DNA of 64,000 nt from an uncultured Actinomycetota bacterium (GCA_963808015.1 CAWEEG010000002.1:1114-65113); one strand, 5' to 3'. Positions 2,508-21,858 are shown, counted from the first letter of the stretch. The notes: a model not told the origin generated them from the letters alone. A program made the numbers and translations.

Positions 2508-2559
2508 CCGTCAGACCGAACATAGTGAATCTCCTATGTGGGTGGTTTTGTCAAGGTGC

Positions 2560-2710
2560 TTTCGGGTTGGGTGGACAGGACTGGGTTGAGCGACACCATC
2601 TGGTGGCAGGCTCCTATGAGGTCACACCGCCCTGGCGGATGGGTGGGTGGGGTCGACAGGTCAATATGAGGACAGCATCCGAAGACGCGTCAGCCGGTTA
2701 CTGGGTCAGA
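2560..2710 (-). ncRNA. Putative bridge/seek RNA in the 3' non-coding end of IS110-A1
   Basis: On the minus strand, in order: TAACCGGC (+2693-2700), CATATTG (+2662-2668), CATAGGAG (+2611-2618), ACCCAG (+2581-2586). These match left target, right target, left donor and right donor. RNA boundaries are estimated. Confidence 0.7.
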
Positions 2711-2724
2711 CCCCACCCAGGTCG

Positions 2725-3762
2725 TTATGCGGCTCGTGGCAGGTGTTTGAACGTTTGGCGGGCGACGTAGCGTTTCAGGCATCGCATGATCTCGCGGGTT
2801 GACAGGCCCTCGGCCCTGCGCCTCCTGACGTAGTTGCGGGTGGCGGGATCCGATGACATGCGGGTCAGGACGATCTGGTAGAGCGCCGCGTTGGCGTGCC
2901 GGTTCCCGCCATAACTCAAACGGACACGGCCGCTGGTCTTGCCTGATCCGGCCGGGACCGGGGCAACGCCACACAGGTGCGCCCATGAGCGTTCCGTATG
3001 CAACCGGTCCGGGTTGTCACCCGCGGTGACCAGCAACGTGGCTGCGGTGACGACACCAACGCCGTAACACGCAAGCAGCGACGGAGCGGTCTCTGCGATC
3101 AGTTCGGTGAGGGCGTCGTCGATGGTGCGCATCTCGTCATCAAGGTCCCGGATACGACGAGCGAGACCCCGCATCACGACATGGGTCGTATAGGTCACCG
3201 GGTCGGAACCCTTGCGGGGCCGCATCGCAGCCGCCTCAGTGATAAGGCCGGTCTTGTAACGATCCTTGAAACGGGCCCGCACCTCATCGGGGCCACAGAT
3301 CACGATTTGGCGCAGCTGGTTGAGTGCCTGATTGCGTTGCATGCGTGCTGAACGGCGCGCAATCATCAACACCCTGATCTGTTCCACCGTCCCGTCACGC
3401 CGCTTCGGCGTCACCGACGCCTCACCGGATAGGGCGGCGCGTGCTGCAGCCTCAGCGTCGATCGGATCCGATTTCCCCAACCGGCGACGCTTCTGACGAT
3501 TCGGCCGATCCACCTCAACGACCTCAACACCAGCGTCGTGGAGGTGTCGAGCCAGGCCAACGCCATACGACCCCGTCCCCTCCACACCAACACGGATCAC
3601 CGGACCAAAGGATGTGAGCCATTCCACAAGACGCCGATAGCCGGCTCTGTTCACCCTGAACGACTCGATCCCCAACACGGCACCGTTCTGATCGAGTGCC
3701 GCTGCGACATGCACATCGGCGTGCGTGTCCACACCACCGATCACTCCAGATACCATCGACAT
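2725..3762 (-). CDS. IS110-family transposase/recombinase (type A)
   Basis: GGVDTHADVH (DEDD RuvC-like N-terminus), GVEGTGSYG, KSDPIDA, C-terminal APVPAGSG...GGNRHANAALY...RCLKRYVARQ. Confidence 0.95.
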   Translation of the reverse strand: MSMVSGVIGGVDTHADVHVAAALDQNGAVLGIESFRVNRAGYRRLVEWLTSFGPVIRVGVEGTGSYGVGLARHLHDAGVEVVEVDRPNRQKRRRLGKSDPIDAEAAARAALSGEASVTPKRRDGTVEQIRVLMIARRSARMQRNQALNQLRQIVICGPDEVRARFKDRYKTGLITEAAAMRPRKGSDPVTYTTHVVMRGLARRIRDLDDEMRTIDDALTELIAETAPSLLACYGVGVVTAATLLVTAGDNPDRLHTERSWAHLCGVAPVPAGSGKTSGRVRLSYGGNRHANAALYQIVLTRMSSDPATRNYVRRRRAEGLSTREIMRCLKRYVARQTFKHLPRAA

Positions 3763-3957
3763 GGCTGCCCCTTTCTCTCGCTATTGGGCAAAGGGGTGGC
3801 ACACGCCACCGGGACGGCGGACCGAGACCAACCGAACTGCTGCTAACAGTTCAACCGGACCCTCACCGCCCGACCGGGGCGTGCCACACCACGCACATCA
3901 TCGCATCACACACACCCAGCCGGATATGGGCGCGCTCTCAATTGAACTTGCATCACG

Positions 3958-3988
3958 ATGGTGGCCCCCGAAAGTCAGGGGCCACCAT
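3958..3988. terminator. 11-bp stem-loop ATGGTGGCCCC-N9-GGGGCCACCAT
   Basis: Perfect stem downstream of the minus-strand gene ending at 4126. Confidence 0.5.
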
Positions 3989-4125
3989 GGGTTGCATGCA
4001 GCTCCGGGAGTCGCTCTCTCCAACTTTCCGAGTCAGCAGATGTCGACGGCGATGGAGCTGCTGTTGTCGCCAGAGCAGCCTGGCGTGATTGGTTTCTGAG
4101 TTCTTGACCACCAGATCCCCCGAGT

Positions 4126-18898: not shown

Positions 18899-18962
18899 TA
18901 GCAACGAGTGGAGCAAGAGAGCGGCCCTCAGCTCGACAAGGCGGACGCCTCAGCCGAACCAA

Positions 18963-19164
18963 CTAGTTGTTCTCGTCTGTCCGCCGCCTCGATGCCTTGT
19001 AGTGCGCCTCACAGAGCTCACGCCTTATGGCTCTTGCCGCAGTCCTTGACGCCGCACAGCTTTGCTCGGCTGGGTACGGGCGCTTCGACGGTCTGATCGT
19101 CGAAGAATCCCACATCGCAGGCCTTGCGACGCTCTGCGGCCTTCCGCCGGCGGCGGGCCTTCAT
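18963..19164 (-). CDS. Small phage-like Cys/His (zinc-finger-like) protein, frameshifted
   Basis: Manual translation MKARRRRKAAERRKAC...KLCGVKDCGKSHKA, then after a frame change ELCEAHYKASRRR. Confidence 0.4.
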
Positions 19165-19849
19165 TCTTCGGCCTCTTGGGCAATGGCTTGCTCGGAGGTG
19201 TGCGAGTTGGTCGGTCTGACGAATTTCACCGGTTCACCGTTCGCGCGGAGCCAAGTGTGGCGGCCTCAGTCCCGGTCTTGTCGGGCTTGTCGTTCTAGTT
19301 GGGCTTCGCTCTCGGCGTCGTTCTCGGGCGGCGGCGGCTTCTCGATCCAGGCGTCGGTGTTGAGGTTGTAGACGGCTGAGGGGTTCGGTTGGCCCTCTTC
19401 GGTCGGCCGGCTCGATGTCGCTAACGGTCGACACCTTTCGGGGCTTGGCGACACTCACGAGGAGACCCGGATGGCCCGCTCTATCGCTTTGAGGCGCTCG
19501 ACGATGATGTCTATGGCTGCGGCAATTCGAGTGAGTTGCTCGGCTTTCGTCTCTTCGGGGAATGGATCCATTGCTCGACCTCCCTTCTCGTGGGTGGATT
19601 GTGAGGGAGGGCGCGCGCCGAACTGCGCGCGCCCCCCGGTCGTACGACTCCGGCCCCGGGGGCGGCGACACGTCGCCGCTGGCCCGTGTTGCTGGAAGGG
19701 AGAAAGAAGCCTGCCGCCTTATGTCGTCGAGTTCTTGAATCATTGGCTGGCGGCGAGGAGTGTCTTTGTGACTTGCTCGGGATCCTCGGAGGAAGGGGCG
19801 AAGGTAGGTAGGTCCCCAAGGGGGGAGACCTTCCCTTCCTCCTTTTACC

Positions 19850-20291
19850 CGGCTGTTGTATATCGGCCATCGGAGGCACGGTCCTACATCATCAACAAGT
19901 TGGGGGAGAACGAAGGCGGATTGGGTGCCGCCGAATACATCTTTCTTGTTCGGCAACCCCGGCGACAAACCCGTTGTTGGGGACTGGGACGGTGACGGCA
20001 TCGATGAGATCGGATTCATCCCGAATCCAGCGGGTTCTTCTCTACCGCAACATGCTGACAACCAGGGATTGCCGATGGCCAGTTCTACTTCGGCGATCCG
20101 GGTGACCGGTTTGTCTCCGGCGACCGGGGTGTCGTGGATGGGGTGGATACCCCTGTGATGTATCGACCTCGAACTCGACGTTCTACTTCCGTCACACCCT
20201 GACCCAAGGCATCGCCGATTCAGAGTTTGCGTGTGGACCGGAGCCGGGTCTCGATTGGCTCCAGGTGTCAGGAGACTTCACCCTCGACTGA
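19850..20291 (+). pseudogene. 5'-truncated paralogue of the FG-GAP-repeat region of 16267-18898
   Basis: VYRPSEARSYIINKLGENEGGLGAAEY...FGNPGDKPVVGDWDGDGID is homologous to residues encoded near 16650-16790. No signal peptide or start is visible. Confidence 0.65.
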
Positions 20292-20330
20292 GCCACCAAG
20301 ACAGCAGGAAGAGGGACCGCCCATAACCGG

Positions 20331-21718
20331 CTGGGTGTGTGTATGCGATGATCAGGGTGGTGTTGCACGCCCCGGTCGGGCGGTGAGGGTCCGGTTGAAC
20401 TGTTAGCAGCAGTTCGGTTGGTCTCGGTCCGCCGTCCCGGTGGCGTGTGCCACCCCTTTGCCCATTAGCGAGAGAAAGGGGCAGCCATGTCGATGGTATC
20501 TGGAGTGATCGGTGGTGTGGACACGCATGCCGATGTGCATGTTGCAGCGGCACTCGATACGAACGGTGCCGTGTTGGGGATCGAGTCGTTCCGAGTGAAC
20601 GAGCCGGCTATCGGCGTTGGCGGACTGGCTGCGCGGCGTTCGGTCCGGTCGTCAGGGTTGGGGTGGAGGGGACCGGGTCGTATGGCGTTGGCCTGGCCCG
20701 ACACCTCCACGGAGGGTGTCGAGGTGGTTGAGGTGGATCGGCCGAATCGTCAGAAGCGTCGCAAGCTGGGGAAGTCGGATCCGATCGACGCTGAGGCTGC
20801 AGCAGAGCCGCCCTATCCGGTGAGGCGACGGTGACGCCGAAGCGGCGTGACGGGACGGTGGAACAGATGCGGGTGTTGATGATTGCGCGCCGTTCGGCAC
20901 GGATCAACGCAATCAGACGCTCAACCAGCTGCGCCAGATCGTCATCTGCGGCCCCGATGAGGTCCGGGCCCGTTTCAAGGACCGATACAAGACCGGCCTC
21001 GTCACTGAGGCGGCTGCGATGCGGCCCCGCAAGGGCTCCGACCCGGTGACCTATACGACGTATGTCGTGATCCGGGGTCTCGCTCGTCGTATCCGGGATC
21101 TCAACGACGAGATGCGCACCATCGACGATGCCCTCAACGAACTGATCGGCACGACGGCGCCGTCGCTGCTCGAGTGTCACGGCGTCGGTGTCGTCACCGC
21201 AGCCACGTTGCTGGTCACGGCGGGTGACAACCCGGACCGGTTGCATACGGAACGCTCATGGGCGCACCTGTGTGGCGTCACCGGTCCCGGCCGGATCAGG
21301 CAAGACCAGCGGCCGGGTCCGTTGAATCATGGCGGGGACCGGCAAGCCAACGCGGCGCTCTACCAGATCGTCCTGACCCGCATGTCAGTCGACGCTGAGA
21401 CCCGCAACTACGTCAGGAGGCGCCGAGCCGAGGGCCTGTCGACCCGCGAGATCATGCGCTGCCTGAAACGCTACGTCGCCCGCCAAACGTTCAAACACCT
21501 GCCCACGAGCCGCATAACAGATCCTGGGTGGGGTCTGACCCAGTAACCGGCTGACGCATCATACGGGTGCTGTCCTCATATTGACCTGTCGACCCCACCC
21601 GCCCGTCCGCCAGGGCGGTGTGACCTCATAGGAGCCTGCCACCAACACGGTGTCGCCCAACCCAGTCCTGTCCACCCAACCCGAAAGCACCTTGACAAAA
21701 CAACACACATAGGAGATT
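20331..21718 (+). mobile_element. IS110-family element type A, copy 2 (inverted relative to copy 1), inserted in site S13 (halves 20316-20330 and 21719-21731 rejoin as ACCGCCCATAA-CCGGCA-ATATGTTCGGT)
   Basis: Close reverse-complement match to 2528-3919. Confidence 0.9.
20487..21546 (+). CDS. IS110-A transposase copy 2, several frameshifts
   Basis: ORFs 20487-20834, 20831-21049 and 21019-21546 reproduce pieces of the 2725-3762 protein. Confidence 0.85.
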
Positions 21719-21858
21719 CAATATGTTCGGTCCACGAAGGGCGCATGGCAGGAGGTTTGTGTGACTAGTCGCGTGGGTCGCGGTGTTGCCTGCTCGATTG
21801 CGTCCGGAGAGCGATTGGTGTCGTCGGCTGGTTCTGGTGTTGCTTCGGTGCGAGACTG

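Follow-up and report, generated by a model that had tools for sequence, protein, structure and literature searches.

The insertion sequences (IS) of the IS1111-attC group choose their target with an RNA from the 3' non-coding region of the element (PMC11187229). The "pdif hunters", which have a Tn7/TnsB-like DDE transposase, insert 5 bp outside the XerC arm of the pdif site with a duplication of 5 bp, the site itself remaining whole (PMC10132070), and for IS30 the targeting of hot spots at dyad-symmetric sites has been described (PMC9333248). Here we analyse a stretch of 64,000 nucleotides from an uncultured Actinomycetota bacterium (hereafter the window), which corresponds to C2:1114-65113 of a 57-contig, 2.05-Mb metagenome-assembled genome (MAG) of Acidimicrobiia, labelled G000; G numbers denote genomes, C numbers contigs and L numbers loci in the compared genomes. 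Six IS copies in this window lie in the centre of sites that look like those of Xer recombinases and punctuate an array of gene cassettes. We consider it very probable that four independent IS lineages, three of them RNA-guided and of IS110 type and one belonging to IS30, are specialised on the centre of these Xer/dif-like cassette sites.

The sites follow the dyad CGCCCATA-n-(6 bp)-n-TATGGGCG, 28 bp in length, in which two inverted arms of about 10 bp each (CGCCCATAn and nTATGGGCG) surround a 6-bp centre, and two classes are distinguished by this centre: Y with GTGCCG and X with TGCCGG. This is the layout of Xer/dif-type sites (a centre of 6-8 bp between inverted arms of about 10-11 bp each), and in a logo of 125 Y and 16 X sites the spacer is nearly invariant. 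A sequence-only reading of the window had placed all six IS inside the 6-bp spacer of such a site and stated that removal of the IS restores it. Base-by-base reading of the junctions bears this out: every IS has a left half-site on one side and a right half-site on the other, and joining the flanks yields the form of the intact sites. The six copies are as follows.

2528-3919, minus strand: IS A1, IS110 superfamily with an IS1111-like layout (3' non-coding guide region); intact transposase gene at 2725-3762, 345 amino acids (aa).
5693-7157, minus strand: IS B1, IS110-type with a 5' guide region; full-length transposase open reading frame (ORF) at 5811-7046.
9360-10784, minus strand: IS B2, full-length transposase at 9546-10694; about 55% aa and 70% nucleotide identity to B1.
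11825-13084, minus strand: IS C, IS110-type; 5' guide region at 12875-13084; transposase with one frameshift.
13443-14659, minus strand: IS30-family element, intact transposase at 13458-14594; inverted repeats of about 26 bp.
20331-21718, plus strand: IS A2, an inverted copy of A1 with 92% identity; transposase gene with at least four frameshifts.

With the point of insertion marked by a caret, the A1 junction reads ...ACATAGTG^IS^CCGGATATGGGCG (half-sites 2512-2527 and 3920-3935); an X site is split at TG^CCGG, and the joined flanks give CATAG-TGCCGG-ATATGG. A2 lies in an X site cut at CCGG^CA (CGCCCATAACCGG^IS^CAATATGTTCGG), with joined flanks CATAA-CCGGCA-ATATG. B1 (CGCCCATATCG^IS^GCACCTATGGGC) and B2 (CGCCCATATCG^IS^GCACATATGCGTG), the latter in a variant Y site, take the same position at CG^GCAC, that is, GTGC^CG on the other strand, and their joined flanks give CATAT-CGGCAC-(C/A)TATG. 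The Y site of C is cut at GTG^CCG (GCCCATAGGTG^IS^CCGATATGGGCGG; joined flanks CATAG-GTGCCG-ATATGG). The junction of the IS30-family element reads CTCATAGGT-GC^IS^GC-CGATATGGGCGG, the dinucleotide GC at 13441-13442 and 14660-14661 being a duplication of positions 3-4 of the Y spacer; the joined flanks give CATAG-GT[GC]CG-ATATGG, and the site is restored once one GC copy is also removed. With about 12 sites in 21.7 kb, the probability that six independent insertions all fall into the 6-bp centres by chance is about 3e-15.

The six copies had been called intact, which holds for their ends, both of which are present in every copy, but not for the transposase genes of A2 and C, which are broken. 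The 40-kb core region had been described as free of IS, and a search of 22-64 kb of the window for long repeats and for further copies of these transposases found none; none of the six copies lies within a gene.

The family assignments rest on domains, ends and insertion habit. A1, B1 and B2 carry the RuvC-like PF01548 (DEDD_Tnp_IS110) at the N-terminal side and PF02371 (Transposase_20) at the C-terminal side, the latter being split by the frameshift in C, and the score of NF033542 is above the cut-off for A1 and B1. As is characteristic of the IS110 superfamily, these elements have a specific target, which they do not duplicate, and they lack long terminal inverted repeats; their ends are CTGGGTG.../...GGAGATT and similar. 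The IS30 element scores 286 bits with NF033563 against a cut-off of 80, has the HTH_38 and rve domains of its family and is bounded by the inverted repeats TGCGGTTTCAGGTGATCATTGCAAC and TGTGATTTCAGGTGGTCGTTGCATC.

The same targeting was observed far beyond the window. Three further A copies in G000 (contigs C44, C52 and C4) have the flanks CATAnTG^...^CCGGnTATGG with differing outer sequence, and A-type relatives with 57-88% aa identity, found in at least 12 genomes of several genera and other species, have both of these junctions. For the B type, the left flank is ...GTGC^ in all copies from G010, G030, G031, G059 and other Acidimicrobiia, and wherever the right end was located, the right flank is CG(A/T)TATG. 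Copies of these IS types in unrelated targets, which would make the pattern a local coincidence, were sought as well; none was found for these lineages, and only more distant relatives (47-78% aa identity) with re-programmed guide loops occupy other targets, as RNA-guided targeting predicts. The proposal that unrelated transposons have converged on this site is well supported, since these lineages share one 6-bp centre as their target both in the window and across many further genomes.

Alleles free of IS, which the sequence-only reading had suggested looking for, were found in sister species for three of the split sites. The site that holds C in the window (S8) is uninterrupted upstream of xer in G016 (two copies), L041 and L042, and reads CGCCCATATCGGCACCTATGCGC in G016. 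The cassette between C and the IS30 element is also present in G016:C7, where it ends in the intact site CCGCCCATAGGTGCCGATATGGGCGG (S9, occupied by IS30 in the window), and the orthologue of the right flank of A2 in the same contig is the intact CCATATCCGGCAATATGTTCG (S13). These orthologous empty alleles fix the boundaries of the IS and show that A and C make no duplication.

The Y 20-mer, with up to two mismatches, is present in 23 of the 61 related genomes, against 0-1 hits for the reversed control, and its matches form co-oriented arrays with a spacing of 0.3-1.5 kb that are limited to a few contigs or regions. The sites thus differ from repetitive extragenic palindromes (REPs) and bacterial interspersed mosaic elements, which are intergenic and dispersed over the whole chromosome in hundreds of copies. 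The count over seven genomes gave 117 intact sites, and 37 canonical half-sites lie directly against recognisable IS ends; in G000 split sites outnumber intact ones. Looser palindrome scans, with the arms alone or with the arms and one spacer mismatch, gave 168-169 hits against 126 in the control on this GC-rich background and were replaced by stricter joint scoring of arms and centre.

The long non-coding end of the element, where a guide RNA would be encoded, lies 3' of the transposase gene in A and 5' of it in B and C. For A1 it corresponds to the following region.

2528-2724, minus strand: predicted bridge/seek RNA region of A1 with two modules of stem and internal loop; GTAACCGGC and CATATTG lie in the target loop, CATAGGAG and ACCCAG in the donor loop.

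Four segments of the A-type 3' region relate to the target and to the ends of the element: GTAACCGGC equals the left target flank plus C, CATATTG is the reverse complement of the right flank CAATATG, CATAGGAG matches the right end of the IS, and ACCCAG is the reverse complement of the left end CTGGGT. When eight diverse A-type regions were folded with RNAalifold, two stem/internal-loop modules were predicted, with guide segments on both sides of each internal loop and compensatory changes in the inner stem of the first module. An architecture of this kind has been described for the bridge/seek RNAs of IS621 and of IS1111/IS110 elements (PMC11208160; PMC11187229). The A-type target guides are identical to the consensus derived from the 16 intact X sites, and both target guides of A2 match its own site perfectly. 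Within the A family the left guide tracks the flank, with ATGACCGGC beside the flank ATGACCGG^C in L013 and GTATCCGGC beside GTATCCGG^C in L037 and ATATCCGG^C in L019. In the relative L014 (78% aa identity), the stems are kept, the loop is changed to ATACACCAC and the flank is GTACACCA^C, a different target.

For the B type, left guide and flank covary, and within each element they agree at 6-8 of 8 positions: B2 and L034 share the left guide TATGTGCC, the flank of B2 being CATATGTGC^C, and the guide of L029 is GAGGTGCC. In C, the left target guide CCATATCGG equals the left flank of the element, and ATAGGAGA and CACTGAG are the donor guides. The only relative of C among the 61 genomes, L153 (G031:C1:187719-188357 plus flanks; 47% identical), has TTTCTTTGG at the homologous place and the flank TTTCTTTGCG^. 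It should be noted that L153 is a case of one IS targeting another, its place of insertion being the frameshift region within a transposase gene of the IS3 family. The guide-RNA trait of the IS110 superfamily is therefore recognisable for a predicted RNA in all three lineages, as a two-module fold with loop guides in A and as matching segments in B and C, with natural re-programming in L014 and L153.

The array also contains a gene that may bear on the role of the sites.

10835-11752, minus strand: Xer-like tyrosine recombinase of 305 aa, located in the array, with the B2-split site on one side and the C-split site on the other.

This recombinase reaches none of the equivalog cut-offs for XerC, XerD and IntI in Pfam/NCBIfam, and with the integron-integrase profile it falls far short, at 84.7 bits against a cut-off of 265. 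The gene lies within arrays in G000 and G016, and close homologues are present in G002, G013 and G009; more distant homologues (60-70% identity, at 70-odd other loci) occur mostly without these sites and were left out for that reason. The architecture of the sites, their near-invariant spacer, the co-oriented arrays, the embedding of a site-flanked recombinase gene in several species and the occurrence of cassettes in new contexts bounded by sites suggest that recombination takes place at these sites, possibly by the Xer-like recombinase. To judge from how tyrosine recombinases work, an insertion would disable the site and fix the neighbouring cassettes; the suggestion of the sequence-only reading that the IS may be regulators of the array finds no support.

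The IS30 lineage has no guide RNA. Whole-genome search gave 11 copies (68-99% aa identity) in G010, G016, G017 and G018, and 11 of 11 abut half-sites. The 2-bp duplication (GC or CC) lies at spacer positions 3-4 in the nine copies with both ends in the locus, one of them imperfect (GT/GC), and X and Y sites are entered alike; a close relative on C4 of G000 lies at CG[GC]CG of a site-like palindrome. At the hot spots of E. coli IS30 the transposase directly recognises the dyad. The constancy of the insertion point and of the 2-bp duplication, in sites of both classes and in five genomes, argues that here, too, targeting is probably direct recognition of the dyad by the DNA-binding domains of the transposase. 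G010, G017 and G018 have no Xer-like gene yet hold IS30 insertions, which weakens recruitment by a bound recombinase as an alternative.

Two observations on this lineage stand apart from its targeting. Its transposase is 96-99% identical between species of the genus (L141, which is G016:C5:80-1213, and L142 and L145 in G018), which implies that the IS, or cassettes on which it is carried, spread recently by horizontal transfer. Another IS30 lineage of G000, distant from this one at about 50% aa identity (contigs C26, C15, C56 and C52), abuts a repeat of about 110 bp and not the X/Y sites; this repeat is present in the window at 30775-30884 and on at least 10 other contigs of G000.

On this basis we propose the following model. 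The sites are Xer/dif-type look-alikes that punctuate the cassette arrays of an Acidimicrobiia lineage. A, B and C each encode a predicted bridge/seek RNA in the long non-coding end, one internal loop of which offers two short guides for the inner arm and spacer on either side of the insertion point; a second loop matches both ends of its own element. The DEDD recombinase would then place an excised circle, the formation of which is assumed by the model, into the centre of the site with no visible duplication, whereas the IS30 DDE transposase inserts with a 2-bp duplication of spacer positions 3-4. The sites are good landing pads in being multi-copy, intergenic, conserved in exactly these 14-16 bp and common to several genera, and the insertions would presumably be neutral. 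The description of the sites as a safe harbour for IS, given in the sequence-only reading, fits the absence of copies in genes and the decay of many of them.

Three other explanations have to be weighed against this model. The palindrome, as a cruciform or hairpin, or a recombinase bound to it might attract the IS, with guide pairing playing a secondary part. The target is a near-perfect dyad; ISPpu10, an IS110 element, is reported to need a target hairpin besides RNA pairing (bioRxiv 10.64898/2026.03.19.712850); an interaction with pdif-bound XerC has been proposed for IS1202-family elements (PMC10132070); and IS30, which has no guide RNA, meets the exact centre in all copies examined in four other genomes. 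Against recruitment of this kind speak the fixed cut and orientation that each IS110 type has on an asymmetric spacer, with guides that spell the site, the non-palindromic targets of relatives with altered loops, and the insertions in genomes without the Xer-like gene. We regard it as improbable.

It could also be argued that the IS insert more or less anywhere and that only neutral intergenic copies persist; the frequent decay of array copies (A2, C, and fragments in G010 and G016) does suggest weak selection. Each lineage, however, keeps to one phosphodiester position throughout dozens of independent sites and genomes, by far the larger part of the intergenic DNA in the arrays lies outside the 6-bp centres, and for the window alone the chance probability given above applies, so that this explanation is effectively refuted by base-level precision and scarcely deserves credence. 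Nearly as hard to credit is the notion that the half-sites belong to the elements, as terminal repeats or as the trace of Xer-integrated circles with a site of their own, and are not pre-existing targets. The right end of A and C (CACATAGGAG) does resemble a site arm and, together with the flank, mimics a site with a longer centre. This notion is opposed by the 117 intact sites without IS, by outer flanks that differ between copies and by the orthologous empty sites; moreover, Xer-type integration would leave two full sites and not halves, and the predicted circle junctions are not site-like.

Several observations weigh against RNA-guided specialisation on Xer-type sites as we propose it. The guide-target matches are short; A1 has one mismatch to its own site in each of its two guides, and right guides in general match at 5-7 of 7 positions. 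Pairing of guides with their own flanks and with those of other copies differs weakly within the A family, because the targets are nearly invariant. The junctions of A, B and C share one ambiguous C and have no identical 2-nucleotide core of the kind found in IS621, and a search of the IS ends with Rfam gave sub-threshold unrelated hits only and no bridge-RNA family. A few uninterrupted sites have 2-3 extra bases at the exact insertion points, namely GTGC-TT-CG, GTGC-CT-CG, GTGC-TG-CG and CCGG-AGG-CA; these rare sites are found in L041 downstream of xer, in L123 (G016:C7) at about 131-160, in G000 at C53:134-160 and in L134 (G017:C20) at 3868-3941. The TT and CT versions correspond to the terminal dinucleotides of B-type elements, and such sites may be excision footprints or alternative, even true, core-containing targets. 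G010, G018 and G037 each have 16-19 Y sites, and in none of them did a search at E<=1e-40 find a homologue of the Xer-like recombinase; arrays of this kind could resemble the CALINs (clusters of attC sites lacking integron-integrases) of integrons or could use the XerC/XerD of the host. Finally, all evidence is drawn from MAG assemblies.

Beyond the targeting itself, it is possible, if on balance doubtful, that the X and Y sites serve an undescribed Xer-based, integron-like cassette system in which the IS, by destroying the crossover region, would freeze cassettes and compete with the recombinase. They would also spread horizontally on cassettes and through a target common to several genera, the IS30 element being 99% identical between two species, and three RNA-guided lineages would have been independently re-programmed onto the same 6 bp in a continuing conflict of two recombination systems.

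The remaining features of the array in the window are listed below.

926-949: intact X site, CGAGCATA-T-TGCCGG-C-TATGGGCG by sequence reading.
2482-2505: intact Y site in inverted orientation, spacer CGGCAC, 7 bp from the X site split by A1.
15420-15443 and 15465-15488: intact X-Y pair, X at the former and Y at the latter coordinates; the Y site is perfect, CGCCCATAGGTGCCGATATGGGCG.
16086-16138: solo IS30-type inverted repeat between an X-type left and a Y-type right half-site.

The solo repeat looks like the remnant of an earlier insertion that was followed by a deletion. X sites tend to adjoin a Y site, with gaps from 7 to about 23 bp (window 2482-2527 and 15420-15488; L012 1240-1296; L015 508-566). 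Intact X sites are far rarer than intact Y sites (16 against 125), and many X sites are apparently occupied by A-type IS. As inverted 1.4-kb repeats, A1 and A2 bracket 16.4 kb of the array, and homologous recombination between them could invert this segment; such an inversion may be the source of the mirror-image orientation of sites.

The first gene of the window (1-951) has two copies with 87% identity in G000 (C52:3676-4601 and C51:56959-57892), and the homology ends at the end of site S1, which fits the site as a cassette boundary. A large cassette gene (863 aa; CarboxypepD_reg, SdrD_B and Vps62 domains) starts with FG-GAP-like repeats of about 47 aa that are shared with a neighbouring ORF (window 16307-18898 and 19234-20105). 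ARAGORN found no tRNA or tmRNA beside the array, and our literature searches found no description of these cassette arrays.

Among described elements, those of the IS1111-attC group (ISPa21, ISPst6, ISKpn4 and relatives) are close to the A lineage: they share the DEDD transposase and the position- and orientation-specific insertion into a cassette-array site without duplication, and the layout of A, with a 345-aa transposase and a downstream guide region, matches this type. Their target, however, is the 60-140-bp attC, whereas here it is the crossover centre of a 28-bp Xer/dif-type dyad, with no IntI, and so not an attC. In addition, the same target is used here by two lineages with 5' guides and by IS30, and the host is an uncultured member of Acidimicrobiia. 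The ISAjo2-type pdif hunters of the IS1202 family in Acinetobacter are likewise specialists for Xer-type sites, in their case those at the borders of mobile modules (PMC10132070), but the elements in the window are of other families, lack the features of IS1202 and split the 6-bp centre.

The REP-targeting IS (ISPa11, ISPpu9, ISPpu10, IS621 and others of other families) also provide an example of unrelated families on a short multi-copy intergenic palindrome (PMC1525189), reached by the IS110 members with a guide RNA. REPs, however, are dispersed genome-wide and associated with REP-associated tyrosine transposases (RAYTs), whereas the present sites form clustered, co-oriented arrays, have the architecture of a tyrosine-recombinase site and are linked to an Xer-like gene. 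The bridge RNA of IS621 and other IS110 elements follows the same two-loop plan, with left and right guides in the target loop and a donor loop for the ends (PMC11208160). Unlike in IS621, the target of our elements has no shared CT core, their junctions show one ambiguous C, and the RNA of A is encoded downstream of the transposase gene. With E. coli IS30, the IS30 element shares a helix-turn-helix and DDE transposase, inverted repeats of about 26 bp, a 2-bp duplication and a preference for dyad-symmetric targets; it differs in keeping to one defined site family and to one position in all copies examined.

In our literature searches we found no report of IS110 or IS30 elements inside the centres of Xer-type sites, and within the literature searched this is the first instance of an Xer-type crossover centre as a target and of RNA-guided and protein-guided elements sharing a target. 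The elements offer bridge/seek RNAs in natural series for which the targets are known and both empty sites and re-programmed relatives exist, which is useful for deriving guide rules in IS110 clades without the CT core. The cassette arrays themselves appear to be an undescribed system in abundant uncultured Actinomycetota, the evolution of which cannot be read unless the sites split by IS are counted. For transposons specialised on the recombination sites of modular gene-exchange systems, these lineages add a third clear case to those of attC and pdif.

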